A stretch of 64,000 nucleotides of DNA from Candidatus Rifleibacteriota bacterium (GCA_012520995.1 JAAYNI010000046.1:42650-106649), one strand, 5' to 3'. Shown: positions 1,298 through 60,516, numbered from the stretch's first letter. Numbers and translations are program-made. The notes: generated by a model from the sequence alone, not told the origin.

Positions 1298-1314
1298 TAA
1301 ATACAGGATTCAAA

Positions 1315-3912: not shown

Positions 3913-3913
3913 A

Positions 3914-11413: not shown

Positions 11414-11453
11414 ACATATTGTTTAACTGGCAATTTATGGTAGAATATCTCAT

Positions 11454-29146: not shown

Positions 29147-29158
29147 GTTTAATGATCC

Positions 29159-29812: not shown

Positions 29813-29840
29813 TAAAAGGCGAAATTAAGGAGACTAAACT

Positions 29841-30949: not shown

Positions 30950-30951
30950 AC

Positions 30952-31479: not shown

Positions 31480-31505
31480 TTAAAAATATCAGGAGATATC
31501 TCACA

Positions 31506-46916: not shown

Positions 46917-49077
46917 GAATGTTGTCAAAACCCTGAAACTCGACACTGTGACTCTCTTCACAGCTCTTTTTATTTCAGGCCTCCTTGTATCTTCAATTTT
47001 CCCTACTGAGTATGCCCTCCTCTGGCTTGCAGCTTCAATTCTTTGCTTTGCGGCATCTTTCAAAGCAAAGAATAAAAAAGCTTTAATATCTTTGCTTGCT
47101 GCAGCTGCCATTTTAGCCTCCATGTTTTATGCTGCAGTCAAATTTACTCCAAGCTTAGCCACAAAAGATCTTCAAACCCTTGAGGGAACAAAAGGGGAAA
47201 TCACAGGCATATTTTCAGGTTCCATAAAAAAGCTGAAGGACGGCTCATGCTCATTTCTTTTACGTGAATCCTATTACAGAACAGGTGAAAGGCTCTTAAG
47301 TCTTCCTATGCCAATAAGATGTAAAGCTCCAGCATCTGCCTGCCACATAGTTTCAGACAGTAAAGTCACCTTAACAGGCTATATGGAGGCATTGCCAAAG
47401 AGCAACCGAGTCCGTTTTGAAGCTGAAAATTGCAAGCTGGGAGAAAAAATTATAAAGTCCCATGTTTTCGCCTATTTTGATACACTTAGAAACAAAATAA
47501 TCACAAAGCTTCAGAGCATTTTAAAACCCGAACATGCTTCTTTCATATCTGCCATAATATTTGGCGAAACTTCATTTTTGGAAAACAACGAACTCTATCG
47601 CAAAACGGGAATCACTCATTTAATGGCTGTCTCTGGTCAACATTTAATGATCTTGGCTTTATTTTTGACTGCGATTCTCTACAAAACAGGAGTTCCCCCT
47701 CTTTCCAGAATCATATTCGTATCTGTATGCCTCTTGTTTTATGCGTTATTAACGGCAGGTTCACCATCGGTTTGGAGAGCCTTGCTCATGTATGTTTTCG
47801 TAGCCTTGACAGCCTATTTGGATGCGGAACACGTGCCAACCAGAGCAATTTCAATAGCCGCCCTGCTTATTTTGCTTTATAACCCTGCAAATCTGTACAG
47901 CCCTGCCTTTGTGCTCAGCTTCATAGCAGTGTTGTCTATAATATTTTTAAGAAAGCCTCTTGAAAAACTATTTTCCAAGCTCCGCCTGCCCCAATCAGTC
48001 AACCGATACTTGGCTGCGAGTACTGCCGCAAACATAGGCACTTTACCAGCTTCAGCCTGTTTATTTGGCTCGCTGCCCATTTCAGGTCTCATTGTAAACC
48101 CGCTTATTCTCTGGATATTTGCATATATATTCCCAATGTCTTTTACAATAGCCATTCTAGCTCTTATATCGCCAGAATTCGCCTTAAAATTCGTTCCCTT
48201 TCTCTCACTTGTCTTAGATGGAGTGACAATATTTTTGGAGTTTTTTGAAAAAAACTTGGGTCTATATTTTGAGTTCAACAAAATCTCTCCCTTCATAGCC
48301 TCCTTGCTGTATGCGATATTATTTGCCGCTGCAGCTTATTTCAACAGAAAAGAAGCAGAAACAGCAAAAGAAACTGCCAACTCTCTTGAAACAATCCGAA
48401 AAAAACGTTCTCAGCGACAAAGACAAAATCGTATTGAACAAGAGACTCAAAGTGAAAAAGAAGAACCAAAAGCTATAAAAGTCCCTCCTAAAAGGAAAGC
48501 CTTGGAAAACAGAAATTTATTGCGCGAAATAGATAATAGACTGATGCAACTTCCAAGACTTCCTGTTAAAGGCTCAGAATTGAAAATACATCCTAAGCTT
48601 GATCCAAAGCTCCTTCAAATAAACGCACAAAACCTTTACCATCGTGTCATGGAAGCTGACTCAAAACTATACATGGAAAGTCCTGACAGACTTTTAGAAT
48701 CTTGCACATCTCTTTTAGGAATAGTTTCCATGGAACTTCTTTCAAGAGTTTCGAGACTTTCCTCCAAGCCCAATTTTTCTCCATCTGATATAAAAATTAA
48801 GTTTCGCGTGGAACACAGAGAATTAGCTATGGCAGCAATTACTGACAGCATATTGGCTCCAGCCTTCATAATAGAAGTTCCTGACGAAAAATTTAAAATA
48901 ATGCTCTCAGAACTCCAAGGATTGTTCAATAAAGCAAGCGACCTTCTTGAAGGCCTTCTCTCGCCAACAGATTTATCAAAACTCCAAAAAGATTATGAAC
49001 TGCTGCGCAGCGAGCTTTTTTCTTGGTGCAGCGACTTTATAACTCTAGATCTGAATCAAAAACACAAAAAACCTTAA
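46903..49077 (+). CDS. comEC: ComEC/Rec2-family DNA-uptake channel protein lacking the metallo-beta-lactamase domain
   Basis: Competence-domain signature TGITHLMAVSGQHLMILALFL and a multi-TM core. The C-terminal ~240 aa are charged and helical, with no HxHxDH motif. The only start codon I see is the TTG at 46903, which is uncertain. Confidence 0.7.
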   Translation: MRPPKNVVKTLKLDTVTLFTALFISGLLVSSIFPTEYALLWLAASILCFAASFKAKNKKALISLLAAAAILASMFYAAVKFTPSLATKDLQTLEGTKGEITGIFSGSIKKLKDGSCSFLLRESYYRTGERLLSLPMPIRCKAPASACHIVSDSKVTLTGYMEALPKSNRVRFEAENCKLGEKIIKSHVFAYFDTLRNKIITKLQSILKPEHASFISAIIFGETSFLENNELYRKTGITHLMAVSGQHLMILALFLTAILYKTGVPPLSRIIFVSVCLLFYALLTAGSPSVWRALLMYVFVALTAYLDAEHVPTRAISIAALLILLYNPANLYSPAFVLSFIAVLSIIFLRKPLEKLFSKLRLPQSVNRYLAASTAANIGTLPASACLFGSLPISGLIVNPLILWIFAYIFPMSFTIAILALISPEFALKFVPFLSLVLDGVTIFLEFFEKNLGLYFEFNKISPFIASLLYAILFAAAAYFNRKEAETAKETANSLETIRKKRSQRQRQNRIEQETQSEKEEPKAIKVPPKRKALENRNLLREIDNRLMQLPRLPVKGSELKIHPKLDPKLLQINAQNLYHRVMEADSKLYMESPDRLLESCTSLLGIVSMELLSRVSRLSSKPNFSPSDIKIKFRVEHRELAMAAITDSILAPAFIIEVPDEKFKIMLSELQGLFNKASDLLEGLLSPTDLSKLQKDYELLRSELFSWCSDFITLDLNQKHKKP

Positions 49078-49108
49078 TAATAAAATCTCCATGTTTCACA
49101 TGAAACCA

Positions 49109-49245
49109 CTAGTGCTGTGTAGCATCTAAATGTTTATTGTCGGACAGATTTTTTTCTATCCACAGATGGACACAGATAGGATTTTTAAGCTAGCTTAAAA
49201 ATCAGTGCTGGGTGGTGAGTGACGAGTTGAATTATTTAGATTCAA
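49109..49245. repeat. Copy C of the dispersed intergenic element (ctagtgctgtgtagcatctaaa ... gtgagtgacgagttgaatt)
   Basis: Matches element B (61006-61130) at both blocks with similar spacing, and shares the 5' block with element A. Confidence 0.5.
49180..49203. promoter_or_regulatory. Perfect 24-bp palindrome gatttttaagctagcttaaaaatc upstream of the second pilin operon
   Basis: Self-complementary over all 24 nt. It lies about 230 nt upstream of the 49431 start codon. Confidence 0.5.
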
Positions 49246-49430
49246 ACACTAAAACTGACAACTGCTTTAAGATGCTAATAAATAGTCGAAACTTTAAGAT
49301 TTGAAAAATAGAGAACAACCTTGATGCAACTTTAATATACCAGACAGCAACAGAAAAGGCGGTTCACTTGCCCCCATTTTCCTTCTCATGTTAAAGTCTA
49401 TAGGCGACTTAATACATTTGGAAATTTAAC

Positions 49431-49889
49431 ATGATATCTCGTATAAAAAATGCCTATACTCTTCCAGAGCTTCTGATTACTGTTTTGCTGCTGGCAATAC
49501 TGCTATCCTTGGGCATTGTTTTTTCCTCAATAATGGCAAAAGGGCAAAAAAACAAGAGTTATGCAGTCGCTCTAGCTTTTGCTCAGCAAGCCATAGAGTT
49601 GGCAAGAGGCGCTCCCTTTGAAATCTTAAGTTCATCTGATGCTGGTGAAGCCAGTGTTGAATATGATCTGAATAACAAATCCAGCGACAATGATTTGCTT
49701 ATTCCTACTTTAGAAAACGGTGAAGCTGTTTATACCAGAACAGTGAAAATAAGAGACATAAAAACAAAAGATGACCCTGACAGTAACGCTGGCTTGAAAC
49801 ATATCAGCGTAAAAGTTGAATGGATCTCCCCTGAAAATAACAAGCCTGATACTCTTGAAATTAACTCGCTGATAGCCAATATCAACTAA
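49431..49889 (+). CDS. Prepilin-type pseudopilin/minor pilin
   Basis: N-terminus MISRIKNAYTLPELLITVLLLAILLSLGIV. Confidence 0.65.
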   Translation: MISRIKNAYTLPELLITVLLLAILLSLGIVFSSIMAKGQKNKSYAVALAFAQQAIELARGAPFEILSSSDAGEASVEYDLNNKSSDNDLLIPTLENGEAVYTRTVKIRDIKTKDDPDSNAGLKHISVKVEWISPENNKPDTLEINSLIANIN

Positions 49890-49890
49890 T

Positions 49891-50640
49891 ATGTACAAAA
49901 GTTTCAACAAAAACCTATCGGAAAAAAGAGCCTTCACTCTAACAGAGATGTTATTGGCCTTAGCTCTCACCGCAATGGTTTTAGCAGCCGCTTACAAAGT
50001 TTTTATTGAACAACAAAAACTGGTGAAATTTTCGGTTGAAACCGTTCATGCAAATGAATCTTTCAGAAAAGTGACCTTCTTTATGGGAGAAGACATAAAG
50101 AAAGCCACCCGCATAGTCAGACCTACGCCAGTTCCATTGGCCTCCGCTTCCGAGCTGATAACAAAAGTCGGCACTATTATGACCGTACAGACTTCCGAGA
50201 TAGATCCAAGAATCAAATTTGACAGTTCTCTTGGCACGCAGATTGCCAAGAGAACTCACATTGACTACGAGCTGGAACTTATGCCAAACTTCAATGAAGA
50301 TTCCGAAGAAGTGCCCGTTTACAGACTAATACGAAATGCCGTTCTCGACGAGGAAGACGGAACCCATTCAGGACAAAGACAAGTGATAGCGGAAAACATA
50401 CAAGATCTTATAATCTACAGAACTGTTCGCGAGCCATTCAAAATTCATTCACTCTCAGAACCTTCAGATCGCATGATTGAGCCTAGAAGTCTAAGCGAAA
50501 CAGGAACAGGCAATAATATAATACACGTAAAAATGGCTATCGAGCGTGACAGATATAAAAAAGAAAAGGGCTCGGTTTACTCGGTTACTATGGAAACCTC
50601 CTTTTACAAACGCGGAAAAGAGATATTCCTGAACCCATGA
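49891..50640 (+). CDS. Prepilin-type minor pilin (PilW/GspJ-like)
   Basis: N-terminus ...KRAFTLTEMLLALALTAMVLAAAYKVF. Confidence 0.6.
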   Translation: MYKSFNKNLSEKRAFTLTEMLLALALTAMVLAAAYKVFIEQQKLVKFSVETVHANESFRKVTFFMGEDIKKATRIVRPTPVPLASASELITKVGTIMTVQTSEIDPRIKFDSSLGTQIAKRTHIDYELELMPNFNEDSEEVPVYRLIRNAVLDEEDGTHSGQRQVIAENIQDLIIYRTVREPFKIHSLSEPSDRMIEPRSLSETGTGNNIIHVKMAIERDRYKKEKGSVYSVTMETSFYKRGKEIFLNP

Positions 50641-52886
50641 AAAATTTGCTGAATTCAAAAAGAGGATACGGAATTATCATTGTCATTCTTTTCATGACAG
50701 TGATGTTTGTATTGTTCGCCGTTTATTTTAAGATGCAAAGCGCTCATTCCTTTTTATATTCCAAGCATGTCAGACGCTCAGTCGCTTCAAACCTTGCGGA
50801 AGGCGTTTTAAACTGCATTATTGCCGAACTGGATGCTAACAGAACATTCGCCACTCACTGGAACTACGACGCAAAAGACACATACACTTTCAAAAGCCCT
50901 GTAAAAAGCCGTGAAACATCCTTGGGGCCTATACCAAACTTTAAAATTGGAGGAGTAAAAAACGGAATTTACTATGGAAGCAGCGACTATGGCACTTTTA
51001 AAGCAAAGTTCGCCCCTTGCTTCGGAGGCTTCGAAAACCCAAAAACCAAAACTCTTTCTGAAAGCAGCATGTACACAAAAGCCGAGATAGCAGTTAAAAC
51101 TGAGGCTGGAAAAACCTCAAAAGATGAGCCTGTCTGCATCAAACTTTCAGCTATTCTCGAAAGACGATTCCCTTCGGCAGAACATGCTCTATATGACGGA
51201 GAAGTATTAGACATAGGCGCTTTGGGTCCATATAACAGCAGCCCCAACGAAATTCGCAGAGCAAGACTTTACGGACATCACTCCATTTTCTTCACTTCAA
51301 AAGGCGCAGGCGATCATGGAACAGAGCTTTTCGAAATTGAAAAAATCGAAACTCCAGGAATGATAAGAGTTACATCAGATACAGATGTCAAATTTTCTGA
51401 CAACACCTCTACTGTGCTGTGCCCTGAAAACGACTCTTTGAACATAACCGCCTTCAACTCTTTTGAAGGCTATCTGATAGACGGCACACATGGAGCTCAC
51501 TCTATAAAACTGAATCGCATTCCTAAAGAGAGATTGCTGAATTACGTGCAAACATATAAGAAAAGCTCTGGAGTTTACATAGACAGTTCGACTTTGCCAG
51601 AATCTGAATATAGAAATCCTTATGATCCTCAAACAAAGTATTACGATCTTGACTTCGGCGAATACAGATTAACAAGCGAGGGCGAAAAACTCGGAAGCGA
51701 CGATCCAAAATGTATAAAAGAAAAAAACGGAGAAAAAATTGTTGTTTATTCAAAAGTTCCCTTAAGAATATGGGGCTCTCCCGACAAAAGCATAACCATC
51801 TACAGCGAAAAAGATATTGTTATAGCCGGTGATTACAACCAAAAGCATTCGACAAGACAAGTATATAAGGACAACCGATATTTAGACTATGCTACAAGAA
51901 TTTACAACGGGAAATACAACCATAAAGTAGGCTCTCTGATAATGACCGAAGGAAGAATAATCATAGACTATTCTGATCCTTCTCTATTTGCAAAAAACGA
52001 AATAAAGCCATATTTTCTTTGGAAACTTGCTGAAAGCATGAATCCCTATTCCCAGAAAATAGCCGGCGAAATCAAAACCGCCCTAGCTCCTCCAGATCCC
52101 TCTGAGAGAACAGCTATTTTCGGAGTTGAAGAAAACATAGACGCTACAGGCAAACTTATACCCAGACTTGGCACCATAGCGTTTCTCTACAACTTTCCTG
52201 AAGTTGATGAAGGCGGCAGCTATAATGCAAACATGGAAGACCTCATAGCATTTTTCACTCCAGGAACTCCAAAATCCATATTCCCTATAAAAAATACACA
52301 GGGTCGCGAAGAGCTTATAGAAATAATTAAGGATGCTTGCAGAACAAACGGCGATTTGACGCTAGCAGAGCAAGATGAAATATTCAACTTTGCTTGGCAA
52401 AAAGCTCTAGAAGACCGTAAAGAAGCTCCTGACGAAAAATGTGCAATAATGGAGATAATTCCCCATCTCTTTAAGGATGCCGCCAAAGACCACAGGGACG
52501 GTCTATTTATACCGGAAATGACAATAAACTCTTTCCTGATCAGTTCAGAAAAACGTTCCTCAATCTGGAGACAAGGCAATAATTCCAACAAGGCCATGGA
52601 TGAAATAGGCAACGTCGGAGATAAGAAATATATTAAACCGCCAGGATTTATAATACTTAGAATTTACGGCGGATATGCTCGTATAGGACGAAAAGAACCT
52701 TCATATTTTATTTCAGGAGAACATACCACAAAAACAGGAGTTCTCAGACGCATAGTCTGGGACAATACTAACCTGACAAATCAAGACTATCGCCCATTAG
52801 AGCAGCCTGTTACCCACAACGTGCTGACAATAAGCGAAACTTTAATAACAGAAAAAGAATATGAAGAGTTTAGCGGCAAAGAATAA
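50637..52886 (+). CDS. Large pilus-associated protein (PilX/PilY1-like position), N-terminally membrane-anchored
   Basis: 749 aa. N-terminal TM GIIIVILFMTVMFVLFAVYF; overlaps the upstream pilin stop. No recognisable catalytic motif. Confidence 0.45.
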   Translation: MKNLLNSKRGYGIIIVILFMTVMFVLFAVYFKMQSAHSFLYSKHVRRSVASNLAEGVLNCIIAELDANRTFATHWNYDAKDTYTFKSPVKSRETSLGPIPNFKIGGVKNGIYYGSSDYGTFKAKFAPCFGGFENPKTKTLSESSMYTKAEIAVKTEAGKTSKDEPVCIKLSAILERRFPSAEHALYDGEVLDIGALGPYNSSPNEIRRARLYGHHSIFFTSKGAGDHGTELFEIEKIETPGMIRVTSDTDVKFSDNTSTVLCPENDSLNITAFNSFEGYLIDGTHGAHSIKLNRIPKERLLNYVQTYKKSSGVYIDSSTLPESEYRNPYDPQTKYYDLDFGEYRLTSEGEKLGSDDPKCIKEKNGEKIVVYSKVPLRIWGSPDKSITIYSEKDIVIAGDYNQKHSTRQVYKDNRYLDYATRIYNGKYNHKVGSLIMTEGRIIIDYSDPSLFAKNEIKPYFLWKLAESMNPYSQKIAGEIKTALAPPDPSERTAIFGVEENIDATGKLIPRLGTIAFLYNFPEVDEGGSYNANMEDLIAFFTPGTPKSIFPIKNTQGREELIEIIKDACRTNGDLTLAEQDEIFNFAWQKALEDRKEAPDEKCAIMEIIPHLFKDAAKDHRDGLFIPEMTINSFLISSEKRSSIWRQGNNSNKAMDEIGNVGDKKYIKPPGFIILRIYGGYARIGRKEPSYFISGEHTTKTGVLRRIVWDNTNLTNQDYRPLEQPVTHNVLTISETLITEKEYEEFSGKE

Positions 52887-52892
52887 AAGCCT

Positions 52893-53261
52893 TCAAAATA
52901 TAACTGGTTTAGGCGAAGCATTTATAGCGACAACAAGATCAAAGTGATTGGCTAATCTGCCTGCCCTGAGAGAGTTTTTAATTTTAAATTTTGTGACAGC
53001 CTGTTCCGAAACAAGGATTCTGACTCCAGCTTTTTCCAGCTCAAGAACTGCCGGCAAGAGCTTATGACCTTCCGAACAAACCTCAGCCGCTTCATTCCAG
53101 AAAACCACTGTTTCAGGCACATTGTAATTTTCAGCCAAAGCTTCTAAAAAGGATTCAAAAGAGCTGACTCCCAAGTCGTTATTTTCGCCTATATAAGGTT
53201 TGGTAAACATTATAAGATAGGGAAGCAATCTCTCAGGAGGTTCCCAGATATTCTGTCGCAT
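52893..53261 (-). CDS. DsrE/DsrF (YchN)-like small protein
   Basis: 122 aa with a layout reminiscent of the DsrE fold (hydrophobic N-terminal strand, ...VVFWNEAAEVCSEGHKLL..., C-terminal ...DLVVAINASPKPVIF). Weak. Confidence 0.35.
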   Translation of the reverse strand: MRQNIWEPPERLLPYLIMFTKPYIGENNDLGVSSFESFLEALAENYNVPETVVFWNEAAEVCSEGHKLLPAVLELEKAGVRILVSEQAVTKFKIKNSLRAGRLANHFDLVVAINASPKPVIF

Positions 53262-53373: not shown

Positions 53374-53402
53374 TTGACAGAGATAAGGCAGTGTGCTAAT
53401 TT
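53374..53402 (+). promoter_or_regulatory. Candidate promoter (-35 TTGACA, TG-extended -10 TGCTAATTT)
   Basis: TTGACA at 53374-53379, 17-nt spacer, TAATTT at 53397-53402 preceded by TG. It lies 95 nt upstream of the ATG at 53497. Confidence 0.4.
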
Positions 53403-53496
53403 TGTTATGTTATTAAGCCCGGAAAAGCTGACGGGTATATTATCTTTTAAACAGCCTCTAAATACTTAGGAGGACTTGAAAGGAGACTTGTTTTAC

Positions 53497-54270
53497 ATGA
53501 TGAAACGCATCTCAATTATAGCGACGGCAATACTTTTTATCTCTGCCGCATTTACCGCTACCGCTGCAGACAGTGTGCTGTTGCAATATAATCCCGCAGC
53601 AGGAACCACAACCAAGTATCAGATGAATCTGAAGGGCAATACAACTGTTGCCGCTTATGGGCGCTCCCAGACCACCAACCTTGAAACCAATATGCTGATC
53701 CAGCAAAAGGTTACAGGCGTTGATAGAGTCGGCAATGTCACCATGGAAACCCTTATTATGGATGGCAAAATCCTGATTAACGGTCAAGCCACACAGCTCC
53801 CTGAACTCGGCAACCTCACAACCGTCAAAATGGCAAAAGACGGCGAAATTCTTGAGCAATCTGAAGGCATGGGCGATGCTACACAGCAAAACGCTCAAAT
53901 GCAAATCAGATTCCCCAAAACTCCCGTAAGCGTAGGTCATACTTGGAAAAGCAGAATTGAACCCAATCCTCAGCTTCCCATTCCTATGGAAACAACCTAT
54001 GAAATCGTTTCCCTCACCGAAATGGTTAATGGTGAAAAATGTGCTGTTATCAAATCTACAGTCACAACCGACAAAGCAGCTGGCGGCAGCATCAACCTTG
54101 ATGTCAGAGCTGACGGCACAATCTGGTTTGCCTATGAAAAAGGCATAATGCTCAGAAACGAAGTCAGATCCAGAATGCTCATGCTCATGCAAAACGATAT
54201 GGGCGACGGCAACAAAGAAAACATTCAGACCAGAATGAATCTCATTCTCAGAATGGATGTAGTAAAATAA
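53497..54270 (+). CDS. Secreted hypothetical protein (beta-rich)
   Basis: Start at the ATG at 53497 after AGGAGG / AAAGGAGA. Signal peptide MMKRISIIATAILFISAAFTATAA. Confidence 0.5.
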   Translation: MMKRISIIATAILFISAAFTATAADSVLLQYNPAAGTTTKYQMNLKGNTTVAAYGRSQTTNLETNMLIQQKVTGVDRVGNVTMETLIMDGKILINGQATQLPELGNLTTVKMAKDGEILEQSEGMGDATQQNAQMQIRFPKTPVSVGHTWKSRIEPNPQLPIPMETTYEIVSLTEMVNGEKCAVIKSTVTTDKAAGGSINLDVRADGTIWFAYEKGIMLRNEVRSRMLMLMQNDMGDGNKENIQTRMNLILRMDVVK

Positions 54271-54282
54271 TTTGTCGACCTC

Positions 54283-54311
54283 TTGACGTTTCCCGTACAT
54301 AACCGTATAAT
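54283..54311 (+). promoter_or_regulatory. Strong sigma70-type promoter (TTGACG-17-TATAAT)
   Basis: TTGACG at 54283-54288, exactly 17 nt, TATAAT at 54306-54311. It lies about 80 nt upstream of an intrinsic terminator. Confidence 0.55.
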
Positions 54312-54394
54312 TGTTGTAAAGCATCAAGCTAGGCTCATTGACAACAATATATGGAGTTGGAAACCAGCTTAACGGCTATTAACTTTGTGTTCTT

Positions 54395-54430
54395 GGCTCC
54401 GCTTTTACCCGAGGCGGAGCCTTTTTATAT
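54395..54430 (+). terminator. Rho-independent terminator (ggctccgc-loop-gcggagcc + T-run)
   Basis: 8-bp GC-rich stem at 54395-54402 and 54414-54421, then TTTTTATAT. Confidence 0.7.
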
Positions 54431-54513
54431 ATCCCGATACTACCCGGTATCACGTTCTTTTTTTTACCTACCCAATCAATATCACTACACTTCTTTATGA
54501 AGGAGGACAATCT

Positions 54514-55422
54514 ATGAGATTGACTAAGAGGCTTATGCGACTGACAGCAGCTACTCTCGTAGTAACCGTGCTGTTCATGACAATGCTCACAGCTCCCGCA
54601 GAAGCCGCCGGACTCTTCTCCAGGCTCAAAAAGACAGCAACTGAGAAGAAGTCTCCTGTCAAGACAGCTCTTGTAGGTGTAGCTGCGGTTGGCGGCGCTA
54701 TTCTGGCAGCCCCACTTCTGTCCACTGCTCTCGGATTCGCATCCGGTTCAGTTGCAGGTTTGGCTGGCGGAGCGACGACAGCGTTGGCTGCAGCAGGTAC
54801 TGGCTTGGCTGGAATCGGAGGCGCAATTTGGGGTGGACTATCAGCTGCAGGCGGTTTCGTAACAGGCGCTATTGGCGCACTGGGCGGAGCATTAGGCAGT
54901 ATGTTCGCAGGGATTGCAGGCTTCATTGGTTCAATTATCTCAAGTCCGTTGCTTGTCCCGGCTCTTTTGATAGCAGGAGCAGCAGTTGCAGGTTATTATC
55001 TGTATAAGAAATACAAGAGACAACCCCAGACCATAACCAACAGCAACAATATTCCCGCAAAGAAAGCAGACGCCATCAAGCAACAACCGGTCACAACCGT
55101 AACAGCTCATAAGGCTGAGATACCAATAGCAGCTTCACAAGCGCAAACACAAGCACAAGAAGAAACGGCTATGCCCGTTACACAAGGAAATGCGCCGCTG
55201 CCAGCAGTATCAGGCTCTGATGAACTCACTCAGGCTCACGCCGCTTACGTAAAAGCATATAACGACTATATGAGTAAGGTAACAAGAATCGGCGGCTCTG
55301 AAAATCCTGATGAGGAAATGAGATCCAATATGCTCCGCGATGACACTCAGCAAGCTCTGAACGAATATCGCAAGGCATATAACAAGTATGTGACTCTCTT
55401 GAGAGCGAACAAAAGCAAGTAG
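54514..55422 (+). CDS. Secreted/membrane Gly-Ala-rich glycine-zipper protein with conserved C-terminal YRKAYNxY motif
   Basis: Start at the ATG at 54514 (AAGGAGG ribosome-binding site). Signal peptide, about 130 aa of GxxxG/A-rich hydrophobic sequence, a basic KKYKRQP stop-transfer segment, and C-terminal ...QALNEYRKAYNKYVTLLRA. Confidence 0.6.
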   Translation: MRLTKRLMRLTAATLVVTVLFMTMLTAPAEAAGLFSRLKKTATEKKSPVKTALVGVAAVGGAILAAPLLSTALGFASGSVAGLAGGATTALAAAGTGLAGIGGAIWGGLSAAGGFVTGAIGALGGALGSMFAGIAGFIGSIISSPLLVPALLIAGAAVAGYYLYKKYKRQPQTITNSNNIPAKKADAIKQQPVTTVTAHKAEIPIAASQAQTQAQEETAMPVTQGNAPLPAVSGSDELTQAHAAYVKAYNDYMSKVTRIGGSENPDEEMRSNMLRDDTQQALNEYRKAYNKYVTLLRANKSK

Positions 55423-55433
55423 CCCTGAATAAA

Positions 55434-55467
55434 ATACCCGGGAGTTCTTCCCGGGTATTTTTATTTT
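55434..55467 (+). terminator. Rho-independent terminator (atacccggg-loop-ccgggtat + T-run)
   Basis: Stem at 55434-55442 and 55451-55458, followed by TTTTATTTT. Confidence 0.7.
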
Positions 55468-55743
55468 AGCCAAAATGAAAAATACAAGAACTTTTGAAAG
55501 CACAAAAACAAAAAAAAGTTTTTTACTACGAAAAATCATATAAACCATAGAAACCAGAATGTCGTTTTTTTTTCTGATGTAGAGTTTTGCCGGTTTTCAG
55601 ACCATCTCCACTCTTTATCAGCAAAATTTTAGAAGCACATATACCTATAAACTGTAAATAAATTTGTCCTTCTTCTACTGGTTTTTTAGCTCTAGAGCCT
55701 TTATACTGCTTATAGATAATATTTAATACAGAAAGAGGATTAA

Positions 55744-58365
55744 ATGAAAAGAAAAATTTTTATTCTGCTTCTTTTGCTTTTGATATTGCCCCCCTTTTTT
55801 ACACCTTATAAAGCTCATGCAACATCAGAGCAAAATCCCGTAGAGATTATTGGCACATGGAATCTGATCAACAAAAAAGAATATCATGACACTGAAATTC
55901 TTCAGGTATTGCCTACTCGCGACGGAAAGATAAACACTCTTTCAATTGATCAAAATGGAACCTTTGTAAATACTCGTTACGAAGAAAGTCGCCTTAACTT
56001 TAACAAACAAGGGCAAAAACTCCCTCAATACGAAATGAAAGATGGGGGCACAACTAGAACAGTAAATTCTTGGACTTGCAGCGGCAACCTTTTGAAATTG
56101 AAAAACCGAGGCGACTGGTATTATGAACTAAAAGACAATAATCTCTGGCTGAAAGATCGTGCTGAAAATGCAAGAGTAATACGTGTGTTCAGCAAAACAA
56201 AACAACCTTCGCCATTGCCTGGCGATCTTCTTCTGGGAACATGGCATATGACTCAGCTGAAAGAGTATCATGATTCTGAACCTCTTCAGGTATGGCCTAA
56301 CCAAGCAGGAGAAACAAACACTCTGCAAATAAATAAAGACGGAACTCATACTACCATAAACTATCAAAAAGAGCGTCTTAATTTTGAGCGACATGGTTAT
56401 AACTTGCCACAATATGAAATAAAAACTGGAGATACAGTAACCCAAAAAGAAGGTCACTGCAAAGCTTACAATAACTCTGTCTTGTGGCTGGAAGGACAAG
56501 ATGCTTGGGCATACAAACTTAAAAACGACAATCAGGAATTGTGGCTCCAAGATCGTGCCGACAAACCAAATACAATATATGTTTACTCTAAAACTCCGCC
56601 GAAAAGCACCTTACCCTCTACGGAGCTTATAGGCACTTGGCATATAATCAAACAAAAAGAGTATCATGATTCTGAACCTCTTCAGGTATGGCCTAACCAA
56701 TCAGAAAAAACTCATACTCTGGTAATCAATAAAGACGGAACCCACTCAAGAACTGATTATGAACAATATCGTCTCAATTTCAACAACTATGGTCATGAGT
56801 TGTCACAATATCAAATAAAGGATGGAGGCACAGCAGTCCAAAAAGAAGGCTACGCTAAATCCTATTATGACAATGTTTTATGGCTGGAAGGCAAAGACAA
56901 CTGCACATACGAATTAAAAAACGACAATCAGGAGTTGTGGCTGAAAAACCGTGTCAAAGATGCCAATACAATATATATTTACAGCAAGAAGTCGCCACAA
57001 AACACCTTGCCGACTGCTGATTTGACAGGCACTTGGCACATGATTCAGCTTAAAGAGTATCATGATTCTGAACCCTTCAAGATATGGCCTACCGAAGACG
57101 GAAAAAACAACACTCTAATTATTAATAAAGACGGAACTCATACTACCATAAACTATCAAAAAGAGCGTCTTAATCTCAGCCGCTACGGTTATGAGCAATT
57201 ACAATACCAAATAAAGAATGAAGTCTCAGAAAAGAAGGAAGGATACGCTAAATCTTATTACGGCGATGTTTTGCGATTAGAGAATCAGGAAGACTGGTAT
57301 TACGAACTTAAAGGCAACGAATTATACCTTAAGAATCGCCTTAAAGATGCCAATACAATACGTATTTACAGCAAAACTCCTCCACAAAGCCCTTTACCGC
57401 AAGCATCTCTCATTGGCACATGGAATATCTATAAGATAAAATGGCATGACAGCGATCTGCATAGGGTAACACCACACGAAGATGGAAATAGAGACAGCAT
57501 AACTATTGATGCAAAAGGAACCCACTCAAGCGCTACTTATAACCACAGCCGCCGCCAATTTGCAAACGAAGAAAAAACATATACAACACACGGCGATCCG
57601 AAAAAACGCTCAGGTTTCTGCAGATCATATTTTGGAAATGTTCTAATACTTGAAAATATGGGAACCTTCAGTTATGAAGTTAATGACAATGAACTGAGCC
57701 TTAAGGATCTCCCAACAGACCCTCGAAGCATTGACCTTTACAAAAAAGTTTCTTCACCGAAAACCCCAGCAGAGGGCACAGCCGTTGCAACAAAACCTGT
57801 CACCTCTGACACAAAAGTTTCAGGAGCAACTCAAGAAGCAAAGACTGGAGCTACCAGCACAAAAACTTCAGGAACAACCCAAGGAACAAAGACTGAAACT
57901 GCTGGCACAAAAACTTCAGGAACAACTCAAGAAGCAAAGACCGGAGCTACTGGCAAAAAAACTACAGATTCAGCTCAAGAAGCAAAAACTGGAGCTGCCG
58001 GCACAAAAACTACAGGTTCAACCCAAGAAACAAAGACTGGAACTACTGGCACAAAAGCTTCGGGAACAACCCAAGGAACAAAGACGACCTCGCCCACACA
58101 AAAGACGCAAACATACGATGAAGCATATGACACAGATATACCGCCTTTTCCTGCAAATCTGCCTGTTCCAACAGAAGAAGATGACTATGAATTTATGCAG
58201 GTTTATCTAGATTACGTAACAACGCATAAAGAATACACAATTCTTAAAGCTTCAGCTAAAGAACTCGGCGTCCGCATACCTCCAGGCAAACTTGAACAAG
58301 CGCTGGACGCTTATCGGAAGGCATATAACAGATATAAAAATATGGCTCTCACCAGGAAGAAGTGA
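55744..58365 (+). CDS. Large secreted protein: 5 tandem ~130-aa GTW-motif domains + Thr/Gly/Lys-rich 13-aa repeats + conserved C-terminal YRKAYNxY motif
   Basis: AGAGGA ribosome-binding site; signal peptide. Five repeats each begin L(I/L/T)GTW(N/H)...KEYHDSEPLQVWP, then TSGTTQEAKTGAT-type repeats, then a C-terminal ...QALDAYRKAYNRYKNMAL. Confidence 0.7.
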   Translation: MKRKIFILLLLLLILPPFFTPYKAHATSEQNPVEIIGTWNLINKKEYHDTEILQVLPTRDGKINTLSIDQNGTFVNTRYEESRLNFNKQGQKLPQYEMKDGGTTRTVNSWTCSGNLLKLKNRGDWYYELKDNNLWLKDRAENARVIRVFSKTKQPSPLPGDLLLGTWHMTQLKEYHDSEPLQVWPNQAGETNTLQINKDGTHTTINYQKERLNFERHGYNLPQYEIKTGDTVTQKEGHCKAYNNSVLWLEGQDAWAYKLKNDNQELWLQDRADKPNTIYVYSKTPPKSTLPSTELIGTWHIIKQKEYHDSEPLQVWPNQSEKTHTLVINKDGTHSRTDYEQYRLNFNNYGHELSQYQIKDGGTAVQKEGYAKSYYDNVLWLEGKDNCTYELKNDNQELWLKNRVKDANTIYIYSKKSPQNTLPTADLTGTWHMIQLKEYHDSEPFKIWPTEDGKNNTLIINKDGTHTTINYQKERLNLSRYGYEQLQYQIKNEVSEKKEGYAKSYYGDVLRLENQEDWYYELKGNELYLKNRLKDANTIRIYSKTPPQSPLPQASLIGTWNIYKIKWHDSDLHRVTPHEDGNRDSITIDAKGTHSSATYNHSRRQFANEEKTYTTHGDPKKRSGFCRSYFGNVLILENMGTFSYEVNDNELSLKDLPTDPRSIDLYKKVSSPKTPAEGTAVATKPVTSDTKVSGATQEAKTGATSTKTSGTTQGTKTETAGTKTSGTTQEAKTGATGKKTTDSAQEAKTGAAGTKTTGSTQETKTGTTGTKASGTTQGTKTTSPTQKTQTYDEAYDTDIPPFPANLPVPTEEDDYEFMQVYLDYVTTHKEYTILKASAKELGVRIPPGKLEQALDAYRKAYNRYKNMALTRKK
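55846..57790 (+). repeat. Five in-frame tandem coding repeats, period about 384-396 nt
   Basis: The GTW codon triplets recur at 55852, 56236, 56632, 57028 and 57415. Repeats 2-4 share long near-identical DNA stretches, for example aaagagtatcatgattctgaacctcttcaggtatggcctaaccaa. Confidence 0.8.
57780..58110 (+). repeat. About 39-nt (13-aa) tandem repeats encoding a Thr/Gly/Lys-rich linker
   Basis: Repeating acaaaaacttcaggaacaac(c/t)caag(g/a)a(a/g)caaagac(t/c)gga... units, about 7-8 copies. Confidence 0.75.
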
Positions 58366-58409
58366 TGTATGCGGAAAACTGATGCAATATAGAATATAGA
58401 GTATAAAAA

Positions 58410-58445
58410 AACATCGCAGTTATTAAACTGCGATGTTTTTTTATT
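58410..58445. terminator. Bidirectional rho-independent terminator between convergent genes
   Basis: aaaaaaacatcgcagt-tattaa-actgcgatgttttttt: an 11-bp stem flanked by an A-run on one side and a T-run on the other. Confidence 0.65.
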
Positions 58446-58533: not shown

Positions 58534-60516
58534 TTAGTATGTATTTAAATGAACTTTTGAAGGATCATATTTCTCTTTGGGTTTTTCGCCGCCTAGAGGA
58601 TAACCAATGGGAATCACGCATAGAGGAACAACATTCTCAGGCAGATTCAAGATCTTTTGCAAGTTAGCAGTGCGTTCATCTGAAGGATAAACTGAATTCC
58701 AGACAGCTCCGAGTGAATAACTCTCAGCCGTAAGCAAGATATTCTGAGCTGCTATAGCACAGTCCAGCATCCAGAAAGGAAGAGTATTTCCTTCTTCGGC
58801 TATTTTCAAGTCTCCGCAGACTACTATGGCTCCGCCTGCCGTATTCATAGTTATAGGTCTTATAATACCTTCAAGAGAGTGCAAATGCGAATGTTCTATA
58901 ATAACAAAACGCCAAGGCTTTACATTCATAGCAGTAGGAGCCGCCGATCCTGCTTTTACCAATGCGTAAAGCACATCAGTAGAGACAGGCAGGCCTTTAA
59001 ACTCTCTAACGCTCTTTCTGGCAAAAATATTTTTAGTAACTTCGTTTGATAGGGTTATTTTTTCAGTAACAGTTTGTGATTGATTCAAAATCGGCTGATT
59101 CAATGGCTGACTAGGTTCAATCGTCTTTGCAGCGCCTTTAGTCTCAATTAGAGGCATTGTTTGTTGCACCCCGGTTTCGTAATCTTTAGGCAAATATAAA
59201 ATCACAACGACAATCGCTATGACAAAAATAATGTTGAAAATATCAGAAACACTCATTCGTTTCTCTCCAGAATCCCCTTCCTGTTTTTTATATCTGCACT
59301 TCTCTAGAGCCTCGCCCAATGGACAAATATAATTGCACCAAGGCCGTGGCACAAACAAAGCAAGCAAGAGCACCACAAGTACTATTACCTTGACCGATCG
59401 AGCTGTAGTTCCTATATAAAATATGGAAAATGGCTCAACTTCACTTAAGTTTAACCTAAATCCTAATAAAAAGTAACATAATAGTAATATAAAAATCGAA
59501 ATACGCAAGTGTTTAAAGTATTTTAAGTATTTATGTTTAATTTTGTATTCTTTTGATACACATTTGTTAGATAATTCTTGCAAGGCTCCAAAAGGGCAAT
59601 ACCAAACACAATAGAAGTTTCTATTGAAAACAAGAGGAATAAAAAAAGCACAGAAGGCTAAGATTATCAAAAAAAGATCTTTCTTTAAGCTTATGCCATT
59701 TACAAGTGCAGAATAAAGCATATCTGCCGACAAAAGACTTGGAAATATAACACCTGGTATAAGCACAGCTAAAAACAGCCAAAACTTACGATATTTAGCC
59801 AAAGAGCCCACATTGAAACAAGCTGCAAGGGCTAAAAGCAAAAATATGGAAAGCGCCGAGTATTTGCGACGGTTTTGTTTGCTTTGCTGTATTTCTTTTG
59901 CAACAATATTTTCATAATTTGAAATTGTCCTATTCAGACTCTGTATCATACAAGAGCTGCTTCTTGTAGCCCTTGTTATTGTGTCAGGAGCAAAAGTAGC
60001 CGCTTCTTTTGTATGTTTGCCTCTATAGGCCTTTAAAAGGCCAGCGTCTTCTATTCTTTTCATAAAGCTGGGAGTTTCTGAGTTTTTATGAACAAGAATA
60101 TCCAAAATCATGTTGTCCATATCCAGAATCACCGACATGGGAATATTAGAGGAAAATCCTATTAGATCTTGGCAAAGAGGCATAGTCTGCAAAACTCTGC
60201 CGATCTGATTGCCATTGGCATCCAAGATTGCCGCTTGAGCCTTGCCTTTTTCTTGTTCTATTATTTCGGCTAAGTTCAGTTTTGCAATTTGCTTTATATC
60301 ATTTATCTTGGGCAATTCAGGTATATAAGGTTTGACTATTGCCTTTTCTTTGAAGTCATGACCGAAAAAGCGTTTATCCTGATAAGAAATTATAGCCGCA
60401 AATAAAATAAATATTAATATAATGGGTAATTTAGCTTTGGTTTGTTCAATAAATTTATTCTTTGTCTTCACTGAGTTTTCTCCAAGATTTTCAAGGTTTT
60501 TCTTGATTAATTTCAT
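58534..60516 (-). CDS. Tripartite membrane redox protein: FMN-bind-like periplasmic domain + NapH/NosR-like 2x(CX3CP) polyferredoxin membrane domain + C-terminal nitroreductase domain
   Basis: N-terminal TM, then GFSSNIPMSVILDMDNMILDILVHKNSETPSFMKRI (FMN_bind-like). TM region with CVWYCPFGALQE and CNYICPLGEALE. C-terminal FARKSVREFKGLPV...APTAMNVKPWRFVIIE...LDCAIAAQNILLTAESYSLGAVW (nitroreductase fold). Confidence 0.6.
   Translation of the reverse strand: MKLIKKNLENLGENSVKTKNKFIEQTKAKLPIILIFILFAAIISYQDKRFFGHDFKEKAIVKPYIPELPKINDIKQIAKLNLAEIIEQEKGKAQAAILDANGNQIGRVLQTMPLCQDLIGFSSNIPMSVILDMDNMILDILVHKNSETPSFMKRIEDAGLLKAYRGKHTKEAATFAPDTITRATRSSSCMIQSLNRTISNYENIVAKEIQQSKQNRRKYSALSIFLLLALAACFNVGSLAKYRKFWLFLAVLIPGVIFPSLLSADMLYSALVNGISLKKDLFLIILAFCAFFIPLVFNRNFYCVWYCPFGALQELSNKCVSKEYKIKHKYLKYFKHLRISIFILLLCYFLLGFRLNLSEVEPFSIFYIGTTARSVKVIVLVVLLLALFVPRPWCNYICPLGEALEKCRYKKQEGDSGEKRMSVSDIFNIIFVIAIVVVILYLPKDYETGVQQTMPLIETKGAAKTIEPSQPLNQPILNQSQTVTEKITLSNEVTKNIFARKSVREFKGLPVSTDVLYALVKAGSAAPTAMNVKPWRFVIIEHSHLHSLEGIIRPITMNTAGGAIVVCGDLKIAEEGNTLPFWMLDCAIAAQNILLTAESYSLGAVWNSVYPSDERTANLQKILNLPENVVPLCVIPIGYPLGGEKPKEKYDPSKVHLNTY

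Follow-up and report, generated by a model that had tools for sequence, protein, structure and literature searches.

Organization of the locus

The window, the whole 64,000-nucleotide stretch of DNA analyzed, is part of a Candidatus Riflebacteria genome that was assembled from the metagenome of a biogas fermenter. It contains three consecutive genes, designated g1, g2, and g3, followed by a convergent gene.

53497-54270, plus strand: g1, 257 aa, exported DUF6263 protein with an all-β barrel model
53497-53565 (aa 1-23), plus strand: g1 signal peptide, site TATA/AD, by eye from the sequence
54514-55422, plus strand: g2, 302-aa membrane protein, 42 ortholog matches
54514-54609, plus strand: g2 signal peptide, predicted cleavable, cleavage AEA/AG read from the sequence
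55744-58365, plus strand: g3, 873-aa exported protein
55744-55821, plus strand: g3 signal peptide, site AHA/TS, read from the sequence
58534-60516: convergent gene downstream of g3

Each of the three N-termini begins with basic residues, followed by a hydrophobic segment and an A-x-A site, and each product is predicted to carry a Sec-type signal peptide. The sequence-only reading had described three secreted proteins; the export signals agree with this, but g2 is a membrane protein and not freely secreted.

The g2 ortholog set consists of 42 matches (L011-L052) in Riflebacteria-type genome records and is separate from a g2 paralog family (L053-L082). g1 lies directly 5′ of g2 on the same strand at 39 of 40 informative ortholog loci, and g1-g2 are a gene pair nearly confined to Riflebacteria, an uncultured phylum. 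g3 is limited to the species-level lineage of the window and one close variant. Gene order across genomes points to a conserved g1-g2 pair followed by a lineage-specific g3, not to the one dedicated three-gene module that had been proposed.

The genes are separately punctuated, as first described, by the following signals.

53374..53408, plus strand: g1 promoter-like site, TTGACA, 17-nt spacer, TAATTT, weak −10
53478-53487, plus strand: g1 ribosome-binding site GAAAGGAGAC, conserved phylum-wide
54283-54311, plus strand: g2 sigma-70 promoter TTGACG-N17-TATAAT, 11 of 12 positions matching
54501-54506, plus strand: g2 Shine-Dalgarno AGGAGG, invariant in 31 leaders
55431..55461, plus strand: g2 intrinsic terminator, 14-pair stem and T-tract
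55734-55739, plus strand: g3 ribosome-binding site AGAGGA, by reading of the sequence
58403..58444, both strands scored: bidirectional terminator common to g3 and the convergent gene, 19-pair stem

The TTGACA assigned to g1 is present at 53374, but its TAATTT −10 matches at 3 of 6 positions and falls below the scan threshold, and conservation of the site was sought in orthologous loci and found absent. The AGGAGG assigned to g1 is also present (53469-53474) but lies 22 nt from the ATG; the conserved site is GAAAGGAGAC, and GAAAGGAG precedes g1 in nearly all orthologous loci. The remaining assignments stood. TTGACG-N17-TATAAT is unusually strong and is the best promoter-like site of the region in the promoter scan, which found no strong promoter for g3. 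Promoter-like sites are not enriched as a class (10 found against 12.1 expected from shuffles). What singles out the g2 site is its retention in 39 of 41 orthologous loci, where it lies at −217 to −319 relative to the ATG. The Shine-Dalgarno sites of g2 and g3 are where they had been placed. Terminator-like sites number 16, against 6.1 ± 2.1 in shuffles, and the top three by strength are those at 54395-54421, 55431-55461, and 58403-58444; the terminators proposed at 54395, 55434, and 58410 are all real. The first of these lies downstream of the g2 promoter, so the only terminator available to g1 is the g2 "leader terminator," and the two are a single element. The sequence signals alone suggest that the locus may be highly expressed.

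The g1 and g3 proteins

Pfam DUF6263 (PF19777) is matched by 29 of 29 g1-family proteins, with the g1 of the window itself under the cut-off (23.1 versus 26.7 bits). The AlphaFold2 model of g1 (pLDDT 85.5) matches the barrels of the large lipid transfer proteins vitellogenin, ApoB, and MTP and of Mycobacterium smegmatis LmcA with a Foldseek probability of 1.0 at 7-14% sequence identity. g1 models as a soluble β-barrel of the lipid-binding kind, and like LmcA and LolA it is small and exported. The TM score to outer-membrane barrels is only about 0.2. DUF6263 is a family without a described function and is not mentioned in the literature searched.

g3 is built from repeats, a linker, and a terminal domain.

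55840-57768, plus strand: five lipocalin-like repeats, about 130 aa each
57806-58085, plus strand: DNA repeat of the Thr/Lys/Gly-rich linker, which has 16-aa repeats
58177..58362 (aa 812-873), plus strand: C-terminal tyrosine-rich helical hairpin, profile E = 1.2e-15

Only two database relatives of g3 were found. Sub-threshold matches to Pfam Lipocalin_4 (PF13648) occur in seven of the eight repeats of g3 and its relative P0097, the best with E = 1.2e-3 and below the gathering score. The repeats share the N-terminal GTW motif and the ~130-aa length of Lipocalin_4; they differ in that g3 and P0097 join 5-7 tandem copies to the hairpin domain, and the database search turned up just two such proteins. 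The earlier statement that the products have no recognizable family gives way for g1 and for the g3 repeats and holds for g2 and the hairpin.

The tyrosine-rich hairpin domain

The C-terminal motif reported as common to g2 and g3 is a real domain. The two C-termini align by BLASTP over 92 residues with 28% identity (E = 3e-5), and the profile (A4) describes two helices spanning roughly 62-70 aa with six invariant tyrosines. A short motif, A..Y..AY..Y, is duplicated with one copy in each helix. No Pfam or PDB match was found for the domain. The motif is not unique to these two genes: a profile search of a representative library recovered 75 protein clusters at E ≤ 1e-3. By our classification the domain is C-terminal in 27 clusters, tandem in 4, and near the N-terminus before a long C-terminal region in 19. 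A hydrophobic N-terminal segment precedes it in most clusters, and in P0150 and P0157 it follows a zinc ribbon and one membrane helix, which places it outside the cytoplasm. Many of the proteins that carry it are otherwise unrelated exported proteins, among them HExxH, Sel1/TPR, and lipocalin-repeat types. The sequence distribution identifies the hairpin as a portable domain of exported proteins, previously unannotated and used either at the C-terminus or at the N-terminus directly behind a signal peptide, and it may act as an extracytoplasmic docking or oligomerization module.

SLH domains and dockerins are portable modules at the ends of exported proteins that serve in anchoring or docking. 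The hairpin is likewise short, terminal, joined by low-complexity linkers, and carried by unrelated exported proteins, but its fold of two helices with six conserved tyrosines is different. CpxP, Spy, and ZraP form helical hairpins in the periplasm and carry duplicated LTxxQ motifs. The hairpin domain is also extracytoplasmic and α-helical with a short motif duplicated in each helix; in contrast, its motif differs, with no match to Pfam LTXXQ, and it occurs built into larger proteins and not as a protein by itself. The g3 hairpin is no nearer to the g2 hairpin than to other hairpins. Hairpin proteins are also present in organisms with no detected g2-like gene, such as Ectothiorhodospira, so docking to g2 is not general.

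The g2 protein

Profile searches gave no family assignment for g2, and its parts were delineated as follows.

54661-55008, plus strand: Gly/Ala-rich glycine-zipper hydrophobic region, roughly 110 aa
55006-55020, plus strand: basic cluster KKYKR
55021-55209, plus strand: variable Pro/Ser/Thr/Val stalk, length about 55-80 aa
55210..55419 (aa 233-302), plus strand: C-terminal tyrosine-rich helical hairpin domain

The hydrophobic region ends with an invariant SPLFIPAL and a helix that leads into KKYKR. The AlphaFold2 model has pLDDT values of 84-97 in the hairpin and below 50 in the Gly-rich part. TonB, TolA, and ZipA are anchored proteins that span the periplasm. In g2, as in these proteins, a membrane anchor is followed by a Pro-rich low-complexity stalk and then by a small folded C-terminal domain, with no sequence or family relation to them. 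Its anchor is a ~110-aa glycine-zipper region after a cleavable signal peptide and not a single N-terminal helix, and no ExbBD- or TolQR-like partner was found near g2.

The g2 leader

The g2 leader was examined in an alignment of 31 leaders.

54312..54513, plus strand: g2 5′ leader
54395..54431, plus strand: terminator-like hairpin GGCTCCGC-TTTTACCCGA-GCGGAGCC with T-tract
54436..54451, plus strand: second small hairpin GATAC-TACCCG-GTATC, TACCC loop motif at 54441-54445
54422..54497, plus strand: C-rich, G-poor tract between the leader hairpin and the Shine-Dalgarno, third TACCC at 54469-54473

The leader is about 200 nt long in the window and 230-290 nt in most relatives, contains an invariant TC.TTG block (54335-54340), and has no match in Rfam. 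The terminator-like hairpin is the most robust new feature of the locus. Its stem is paired in 99.4% of cells with compensatory changes at 6 pairs, its loop contains TACCC (54406-54410), and in 26 of 31 leaders the tail has at least 5 T among the first 8 positions. The second small hairpin is kept in about 20 of the 31 leaders and does not vary in sequence among them; the remainder have (ACCCAA)n tracts instead. The tract that follows the terminator-like hairpin is 28% C and 5% G in the window and averages 28.7% C and 12.8% G over the 31 leaders. WACCC occurs 158 times in the leaders against 19.4 ± 4.2 expected, an ~8-fold enrichment, and at least three (U/A)ACCC motifs are conserved. A promoter-like site (at least 9 of 12 positions) lies 3′ of the hairpin in only 2 of 31 leaders, and without a conserved promoter there g2 depends on read-through.

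An upstream block can pair with the 5′ arm of the terminator as an antiterminator. This pairing occurs in 80.7% of cells, both partners have changed at 6 of its pairs, and alignment column 130 covaries with both its antiterminator and its terminator partners. On four of five measures the observed values were reached by only 1-10 of 500 shuffles, an excess that overstates what is limited support because the sequences are related; the pair-type count is unremarkable (352 of 500 shuffles reach it). Minimum-energy folds of the full leaders contain the terminator in 31 of 31, and folds of the nascent leader contain the antiterminator in 19 of 31. The leader of the window is a shortened variant in which 0 of 9 consensus antiterminator pairs are predicted, and a variable inner hairpin is absent from several leaders (mean z −1.18). 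On sequence grounds, transcription of g2 starts at a consensus promoter that hardly varies and runs through a leader with conserved structure, and the leader may be of an attenuator type that also terminates g1.

A model for the g1-g2 pair

The explanation we favor combines a g1-g2 envelope pair, a hairpin docking module, and an attenuator leader; taken whole, it falls a little short of an even chance. g2 would be a membrane-anchored protein whose flexible stalk carries the hairpin into the periplasm. The hairpin would dock or oligomerize, so that g3 and other hairpin-tagged proteins join g2, one another, or a common envelope component, and g1 would deal with a hydrophobic partner, a lipid for instance, in the compartment that holds the g2 hairpin. 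In the nascent leader the upstream block would first capture the terminator's 5′ arm, and the more stable terminator would form next unless prevented. A factor that reads (U/A)ACCC, or Rho through the C-rich tract, would set the level of read-through into g2, and g1 transcripts would end at the same hairpin. Like attenuators and riboswitch platforms, the leader places a hairpin and U-tract between promoter and coding sequence, has a mutually exclusive, covarying upstream pairing, and combines a thermodynamically favored terminator with an antiterminator that is first to form. Neither an aptamer-like conserved core nor a leader peptide was found in it, and the repeated WACCC and C-rich tract point to an input by a protein, an RNA, or Rho more than to a small-molecule ligand.

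The leader could instead lack a regulated switch, with the 54395 hairpin a plain g1 terminator and the leader structures stabilizing a long-lived, heavily translated mRNA. We regard this as possible but distinctly the less probable outcome. ompA and S-layer genes are abundant envelope genes with long structured 5′ UTRs, and the g2 leader can be likened to these, with the C-rich tract an unstructured translation enhancer; that extension is equally doubtful. No other terminator is available to g1, whose stop codon at 54270 is followed by the g2 −35 from 54283. A possible stem near the leader 5′ end, CAAG...CTTG, is 89.5% paired and does not covary, many species have a broken U-tract (e.g., TTCTTCAT), and the leader of the window has no consensus antiterminator. 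However, the hairpin persists in cases where g1 is not at stake, and the WACCC enrichment in its loop, the second loop, and the downstream tract would be superfluous for a terminator or stabilizer. That the upstream block and the terminator's 5′ arm covary also argues for a switch, as does the cost to g2 expression of a hairpin and T-rich tail unless it is overridden.

The sequence-only reading saw one dedicated surface module with high expression, be it S-layer-like, adhesin, or matrix; on this view its proteins are released or displayed together. The Sec signals, the strong g2 promoter and ribosome-binding site, and the repeat, linker, and terminal domain build of g3, typical of surface proteins, fit such a module, and strains differ in their number of g3 repeats (873 aa here versus 1166 aa in P0097). 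No SLH, other S-layer, adhesin, or Ig-like domain was found, however, and g3 is not conserved alongside g1-g2 and has no strong promoter. g2 has a large hydrophobic membrane region, and g1 models as a soluble lipid-binding barrel and not a structural protein, and the module is quite unlikely.

The favored model places the g2 hairpin in the periplasm, which would also set KKYKR there, contrary to the positive-inside rule. In the reverse topology the signal peptide would be cleaved, the Gly-rich region would be periplasmic, the last helix a stop-transfer anchor, and the stalk and hairpin cytoplasmic, with g2 a membrane-stress or scaffold protein whose location is unrelated to g3. This arrangement satisfies the rule, and the 19-aa length difference of the Gly-rich region in g2 paralogs is at odds with a fixed number of membrane helices. 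In at least seven other architectures, g3 among them, the same domain nevertheless follows signal peptides or a zinc ribbon and one membrane helix; the hairpin is exported everywhere else, and a cytoplasmic location in g2 alone is unlikely.

Least probable is that the promoter and hairpin form an independent sRNA of about 110-150 nt whose WACCC loops act in trans on G-rich sites, and a GGGGGU ribosome-binding site of the g2 paralog is a similarly improbable example of a target. The promoter-to-terminator unit does resemble an sRNA gene, the WACCC motifs lie in exposed loops, and the paralog has a conserved ACAGGGGGUU / UUGGGGGUAU ribosome-binding region, but that complementarity covers only about 5 nt and could be chance. 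Against an independent RNA, g2 has no conserved promoter of its own beyond the hairpin, the promoter-hairpin element occurs once per locus and always 5′ of g2, and leader conservation extends past the hairpin to the Shine-Dalgarno site.

A conserved g1–g2 pair with a lineage-specific g3

Three consecutive + strand genes encode exported proteins: g1, a DUF6263 protein; g2, a membrane protein; and g3, a protein of lipocalin-like repeats. The amino terminus of each runs from a basic stretch through a hydrophobic stretch to an A-x-A cleavage site.

Genes and scanned expression signals of the locus
53497–54270, + strand: g1, 257 aa
54283–54311: g2 promoter, TTGACG-17-TATAAT, 11 of 12 consensus positions (scan)
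54395–54421: outstanding terminator-like hairpin (scan)
54514–55422, + strand: g2, 302 aa
55431–55461: outstanding terminator-like hairpin (scan)
55744–58365, + strand: g3, 873 aa
58403–58444: outstanding terminator-like hairpin (scan)

Terminator-like sites are enriched in the region (16 versus 6.1 ± 2.1 in shuffles). Promoter-like sites as a class are not (10 versus 12.1), and the scan returned no strong promoter for g3. The sequence-only reading had assigned g1 a TTGACA promoter and an AGGAGG ribosome-binding site at 53469; the promoter has a poor −10 element and is not conserved, and the conserved ribosome-binding site is instead GAAAGGAGAC (53478–53487). The RNA hairpin at 54395 sits downstream of the g2 promoter, and the g1 terminator and the g2 leader terminator are therefore a single element.

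Proteins identical to those of the window were found on contigs of biogas-fermenter metagenomes, and the NCBI name for the g2 cluster is Candidatus Riflebacteria. There are 91 full-length g2 homologues (46–61% identity), and the named ones all belong to Riflebacteria, Rifleibacterium or Ozemobacteraceae. With one genome scanned for each species, 42 orthologue matches (loci L011–L052) were obtained, together with 30 (L053–L082) to a shorter paralogue that is also present in records labelled Wallbacteria and UBP16. By a local profile search, 39 of the 40 orthologue loci with enough upstream sequence have g1 on the same strand as g2 and directly upstream of it (L021 is the exception), and g1 never adjoins the paralogue. 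The only database relatives of g3 are g3 itself and P0097, a 1166-aa variant that is 74% identical and has more repeats, and none of the other loci has g3 downstream of g2. Only g1–g2 is thus a conserved unit, and the proposed three-gene module gives way to this pair with g3 as a lineage-specific addition.

Four metagenome-assembled genome records (L011, L012, L016 and L037) carry a typical Riflebacteria g1–g2 pair and leader under the labels Avigastranaerophilus, Methylomirabilis or Erysipelotrichia, which are probably binning or labelling errors. Beyond Riflebacteria proper (L068, L073, L076–L078, L080 and L081, including Wallbacteria and UBP16) the paralogue is duplicated in tandem, and a TTGACA-N17-TATAAT promoter precedes the first copy. 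The conserved neighbours of the single Riflebacteria paralogue resemble RecD2-, RsmD- and RecG-type housekeeping genes by sequence, and the paralogue neighborhood provided no functional clue.

The g2 leader carries a conserved terminator and a candidate antiterminator

A TTGACG-N17-TATAAT promoter is located 217–319 nt 5′ of the g2 ATG in 39 of 41 orthologue loci. Alignment of 31 distinct leaders defined the elements of the transcript between this promoter and the g2 start.

Conserved elements of the g2 leader (alignment of 31)
Near the 5′ end: CAAGAU...UCYUUGAAAA
Upstream block: CGGAAUCCAG
Main hairpin: GAAACUGGAGCUCCGC-UUUWACCCGA-GCGGAGCUUC, then UUUUAUA
Second hairpin: UUACCCG loop, or (ACCCAA)n repeats instead
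Block between second hairpin and Shine-Dalgarno: UUACCUACCUACCC
Shine-Dalgarno: AGGAGG, invariant

The main hairpin of the window has an 11-pair stem plus TTTTTATATA. Across the 31 leaders the hairpin is 99.4% paired, 6 of its 12 pairs have changes on both sides, and the following tail has at least 5 T in 8 positions in 26 leaders. A GC-rich hairpin and U-tract lie between promoter and start codon, the arrangement that characterizes an attenuator. A promoter-like site (at least 9 of 12 positions) occurs past the main hairpin in only two leaders, and g2 therefore depends on read-through. A variable inner hairpin between the upstream block and the main hairpin (about 22 of 31 leaders) was rejected as a conserved element because of a mean z of only −1.18 and its absence from the window; it is treated as optional.

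Pairing of the upstream block with the 5′ arm of the main hairpin forms the candidate antiterminator, which is 80.7% paired and has changes on both sides of six pairs. The pairing exceeds all slid controls, and on four of five measures it also exceeds shuffles (only 1–10 of 500 reach the observed value); on the fifth, further pair types, this value is reached by 352 of 500 shuffles. Covariation at alignment column 130 extends to both of the alternative partners of that column. In the predicted folds, the terminator belongs to the minimum-energy structure of every one of the 31 full leaders, and the antiterminator to the nascent transcript of 19. The window's leader is a shortened variant that retains both the main and the second hairpin as well as three TACCC motifs, and none of the nine consensus antiterminator pairs is predicted in its fold. 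The window's fold is consistent with a hairpin that acts as a terminator plus stabiliser only, an explanation against which the covariation of the upstream block with the 5′ arm across species counts.

The motif (U/A)ACCC, or WACCC, occurs 158 times in the 31 leaders versus 19.4 ± 4.2 expected, with at least three copies in every leader. Two copies lie in hairpin loops and the others in a single-stranded tract; those of the window are at 54406–54410, 54441–54445 and 54469–54473. The second hairpin is replaced by (ACCCAA)n arrays in Ozemobacter-type leaders. Between the hairpin and the Shine-Dalgarno lies a tract rich in C (28.7%) and poor in G (12.8%), and candidates for the effector are limited to the repeated WACCC motifs and this tract. 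The alignment contains no conserved leader open reading frame. A leader peptide was rejected because the ATG-initiated frame of the window lacks a ribosome-binding site and its ATG is not conserved.

Rfam returned no match in the whole window at the gathering score, and at E <= 10 only chance-level matches were obtained (ncS54 at 15.2 bits versus a 43-bit cut-off, and one lncRNA fragment). There are no second copies of the leader in the window or the 82 loci, each locus having one element. An independent sRNA would likewise be expected to have a promoter and a terminator of its own; the constant placement of a single copy 5′ of g2, ending in an invariant Shine-Dalgarno, points to a leader.

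The ribosome-binding region of the g2 paralogue, about 10–20 nt 5′ of its start codon, is conserved and unusual: ACAGGGGGUU or CUUGGGGGUAU. This region is complementary in sequence to the WACCC(C) of the g2 leader, which may reflect cross-talk or coincidence.

Domain organization of g2

Alignments establish the order of parts in g2. The signal peptide has a near-invariant A-x-A in front of GLFS and is followed by a short, basic and amphipathic stretch and then by a Gly/Ala-rich hydrophobic region of about 110 aa with many invariant glycines. An invariant SPLFIPAL, a hydrophobic helix and KKYKR come next, then a variable stalk of Pro, Ser, Thr, Val and Glu. The protein ends in a strongly conserved domain, AHxxYIKAYNKY...IGGSENPDEE...ALxxYRxAYNxY. 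Confidence in the AlphaFold2 model is confined to the signal helix, the last membrane helix (147–168) and the C-terminal helices (235–298; pLDDT 84–97).

Database searches with g2 returned no Pfam family at E <= 0.1, no NCBIfam match and no PDB relative, and the Pfam profiles Gly-zipper_Omp, Gly-zipper_YMGG and Rick_17kDa_Anti do not match it. The sole PDB sequence match of the g2 profile, to herpesvirus gB residues 716–816 (E 1.9e-6), was rejected as hydrophobic or low-complexity similarity rather than homology. Foldseek retrieved generic helical hairpins only, all at E >= 1, an uninformative outcome of the kind expected at a mean model pLDDT of 62.

Residues 144–169 of g2 (54943–55020), with SPLFIPAL, the hydrophobic helix and KKYKR, resemble a three-part sortase/exosortase-type sorting signal. 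A C-terminal signal of the LPXTG, PEP-CTERM or GlyGly-CTERM type was rejected because the element is internal, with about 135 residues after it, and has no NCBIfam sorting-domain match.

A tyrosine-rich hairpin domain shared by g2, g3 and other exported proteins

The C-termini of g2 and g3 align (28% identity, E 3e-5), which bears out the common C-terminal motif seen in the sequence-only reading. This two-helix protein domain, here the hairpin domain, has six invariant tyrosines on its two helices and a duplicated A..Y..AY..Y motif; g2 and g3 are its only carriers in the window. A recent origin of the g3 copy from the neighboring g2 was rejected, since the distance of the g3 copy to every hairpin group is about the same.

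A profile of 14 hairpins searched against 1.84 billion representative proteins matches 75 clusters at E <= 1e-3, and the domain has no Pfam or PDB-sequence match. Local classification assigned nine clusters as g2-like and 18 as carrying the domain at the C-terminus of other proteins. The domain is near the N-terminus in 19, mostly preceded by a hydrophobic signal-like segment and followed by a long C-terminal region, and in tandem in four; of 22 further clusters, 12 are short fragments and 10 have other layouts. Its partners include HExxH proteins of 1000–1350 aa and Sel1/TPR proteins, and there is one five-fold tandem array. In some carriers a zinc ribbon in the cytoplasm precedes one membrane helix, and the hairpin and then an SH3_3 domain follow. 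Most carriers looked up are nameless in their source records, and the named ones are all "hypothetical protein" (Riflebacteria, two; Ectothiorhodospira, one; a Chromatiaceae metagenome-assembled genome, one).

Such architectures put the domain on the extracytoplasmic side. A topology with the g2 hairpin domain in the periplasm conflicts with the positive-inside rule, which is one of the main weaknesses of the scheme below and favors the alternative of a cytoplasmic domain in g2.

A second conserved motif, LDTSGIDGIVDID, lies about 15–25 residues past the hairpin domain in P0143, P0144, P0149, P0151 and P0155–P0158, and several of these proteins run on into HExxH regions (about 1000 aa) or Sel1/TPR repeats.

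g1 is a predicted lipid-binding-type barrel and g3 a repeat protein

The g1 sequence scores 23.1 bits against Pfam DUF6263 (PF19777; E 6.5e-5), with a gathering score of 26.7 bits. All 29 aligned members of its family match DUF6263 at E <= 0.01 (best 1.9e-12), and most g1 orthologues carry a precomputed PF19777 match. By profile, g1 belongs to DUF6263, a family with no described function and no mention found in the literature searched. Its AlphaFold2 model is all-beta and of high confidence (pLDDT 85.5, pTM 0.77). This predicted model superposes significantly on solved members of the lipid-binding beta-barrel fold, namely the lipid-transfer barrels of vitellogenin, ApoB and MTP and M. smegmatis LmcA (Foldseek probability 1.0, TM 0.40–0.52). 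An integral outer-membrane beta-barrel was rejected on poor superposition (TM ~0.2) and the lack of a C-terminal aromatic beta-signal. With its signal peptide and no such C-terminal signal, g1 is best read from the model as a soluble periplasmic barrel, which may bind a lipid or other hydrophobic group.

The g3 protein has five repeats of about 130 aa, each opening with GTW, a linker encoded by a 48-nt (16-aa) tandem repeat of 5.8 copies rich in Thr, Lys and Gly, and the hairpin domain at its C-terminal end. Seven of eight g3 and P0097 repeats match Lipocalin_4 (PF13648), all below the gathering score of 22.4 bits; the best E is 1.2e-3, and the first repeat scanned scores 18.6 bits. The repeats are lipocalin-like by sequence profile. 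Repeat number differs between close strains, with five in g3 (55840–57768) and six by GTW motif in P0097, whose N-terminus matches partway into the first g3 repeat and which has one divergent extra domain. The difference fits a fast-evolving exposed protein.

Another explanation, a surface-layer module of g1–g3, draws on three exported products and had been raised for the locus as S-layer-like; Pfam and NCBIfam found no SLH or other S-layer domain in g1–g3.

A proposed scheme for the g1–g2 locus

The anatomy of the locus, its conservation, the distribution of the domain and the RNA pairings are observed. Beyond them, we infer that the glycine-zipper region would hold g2 in the membrane and that a flexible stalk would display its hairpin domain in the periplasm. 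The domain would serve in attachment or oligomerisation, with g3 using the same module, and g1 would bind a hydrophobic partner. The leader would be an attenuator whose read-through is set by a WACCC reader, Rho or both, and it would also terminate g1. The anatomy alone is very probably correct. Regulated attenuation by the leader stands at an even chance, and the composite of anchored g2, hairpin docking, g1 binding and leader attenuation falls slightly short of that. A docking role for the hairpin domain is doubtful, and hairpin-domain proteins from organisms for which no g2-like gene turned up count against the scheme.

A broader pair of proposals, that the leader is a new attenuator class found across the phylum and the tyrosine-rich hairpin domain a new envelope docking system, is improbable when taken jointly. 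A dedicated factor would read the multivalent WACCC motifs (two in loops, one or more single-stranded); a multimeric RNA-binding protein and a G-rich RNA are both candidates for this reader, perhaps acting with Rho. In the docking proposal, g2 would sit in the membrane of this diderm phylum as a receptor for secreted proteins that carry the hairpin, g3 among them, and would display them.

The g2 protein, the hairpin domain and the leader are outside any described family. In kind, g2 is like an anchored, stalked periplasmic protein, the domain like a terminal docking module, and the leader like a terminator-antiterminator leader. Riflebacteria are reported to exceed all other named phyla in unknown gene families per genome, only the unnamed UBP17 being higher, and to have 26 candidate phylum-defining families (PMC10849945). 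They are counted among the diderm Terrabacteria with OmpM tethers (bioRxiv 10.1101/2021.05.31.446380). The literature searched contained no cultured or experimental data on Riflebacteria. The locus offers three handles on their biology: a phylum-conserved gene pair whose products are predicted to act in the cell envelope, an unannotated exported domain in at least 75 protein clusters that include large putative metalloproteases, and a structured mRNA leader missing from Rfam. If the hairpin domain docks, it would be a new way to attach proteins to the diderm Terrabacteria envelope; a leader that proves to be a factor-dependent attenuator would represent a new class of cis-regulatory RNA, recognisable by a simple motif.

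Genes surrounding the locus

Neighboring genes in the window
46903–49077: ComEC/Rec2-like gene
49431–49889 and 49891–50640: two prepilin-type genes with N-terminal methylation motifs, after the ComEC/Rec2-like gene
50637–52886: 749-aa protein, pilin-like hydrophobic N-terminus, no family match
52893–53261, − strand: 122-aa protein, matches the YedF C-terminal half only (E 4.5e-15, below cut-off)
58534–60516, − strand: 660-aa fusion of FMN-binding, polytopic 4Fe-4S membrane (Fer4_5, NosR/NapH-like) and C-terminal nitroreductase domains

A link between the pseudopilin/ComEC cluster (46903–52886) and g1–g2 was rejected because the cluster does not adjoin the pair in other Riflebacteria. YedF is a selenium-metabolism protein. 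L007, L009 and L010 have a small minus-strand gene (124–151 aa) upstream of g1 at the position of the 52893–53261 gene. The fusion gene is convergent on the g3 terminator. Flagellar fliF, fliG, fliH and fliI are at the window start, and the g2-flanking genes of other Riflebacteria (5′-nucleotidase, GAF-HD, phosphoglucomutase, FG-GAP and TPR) are in the window 20–40 kb away, the two groups jointly covering 221–5221, 9776–13031 and 27797–34200. This distance indicates that the neighborhood was rearranged in the window's lineage.
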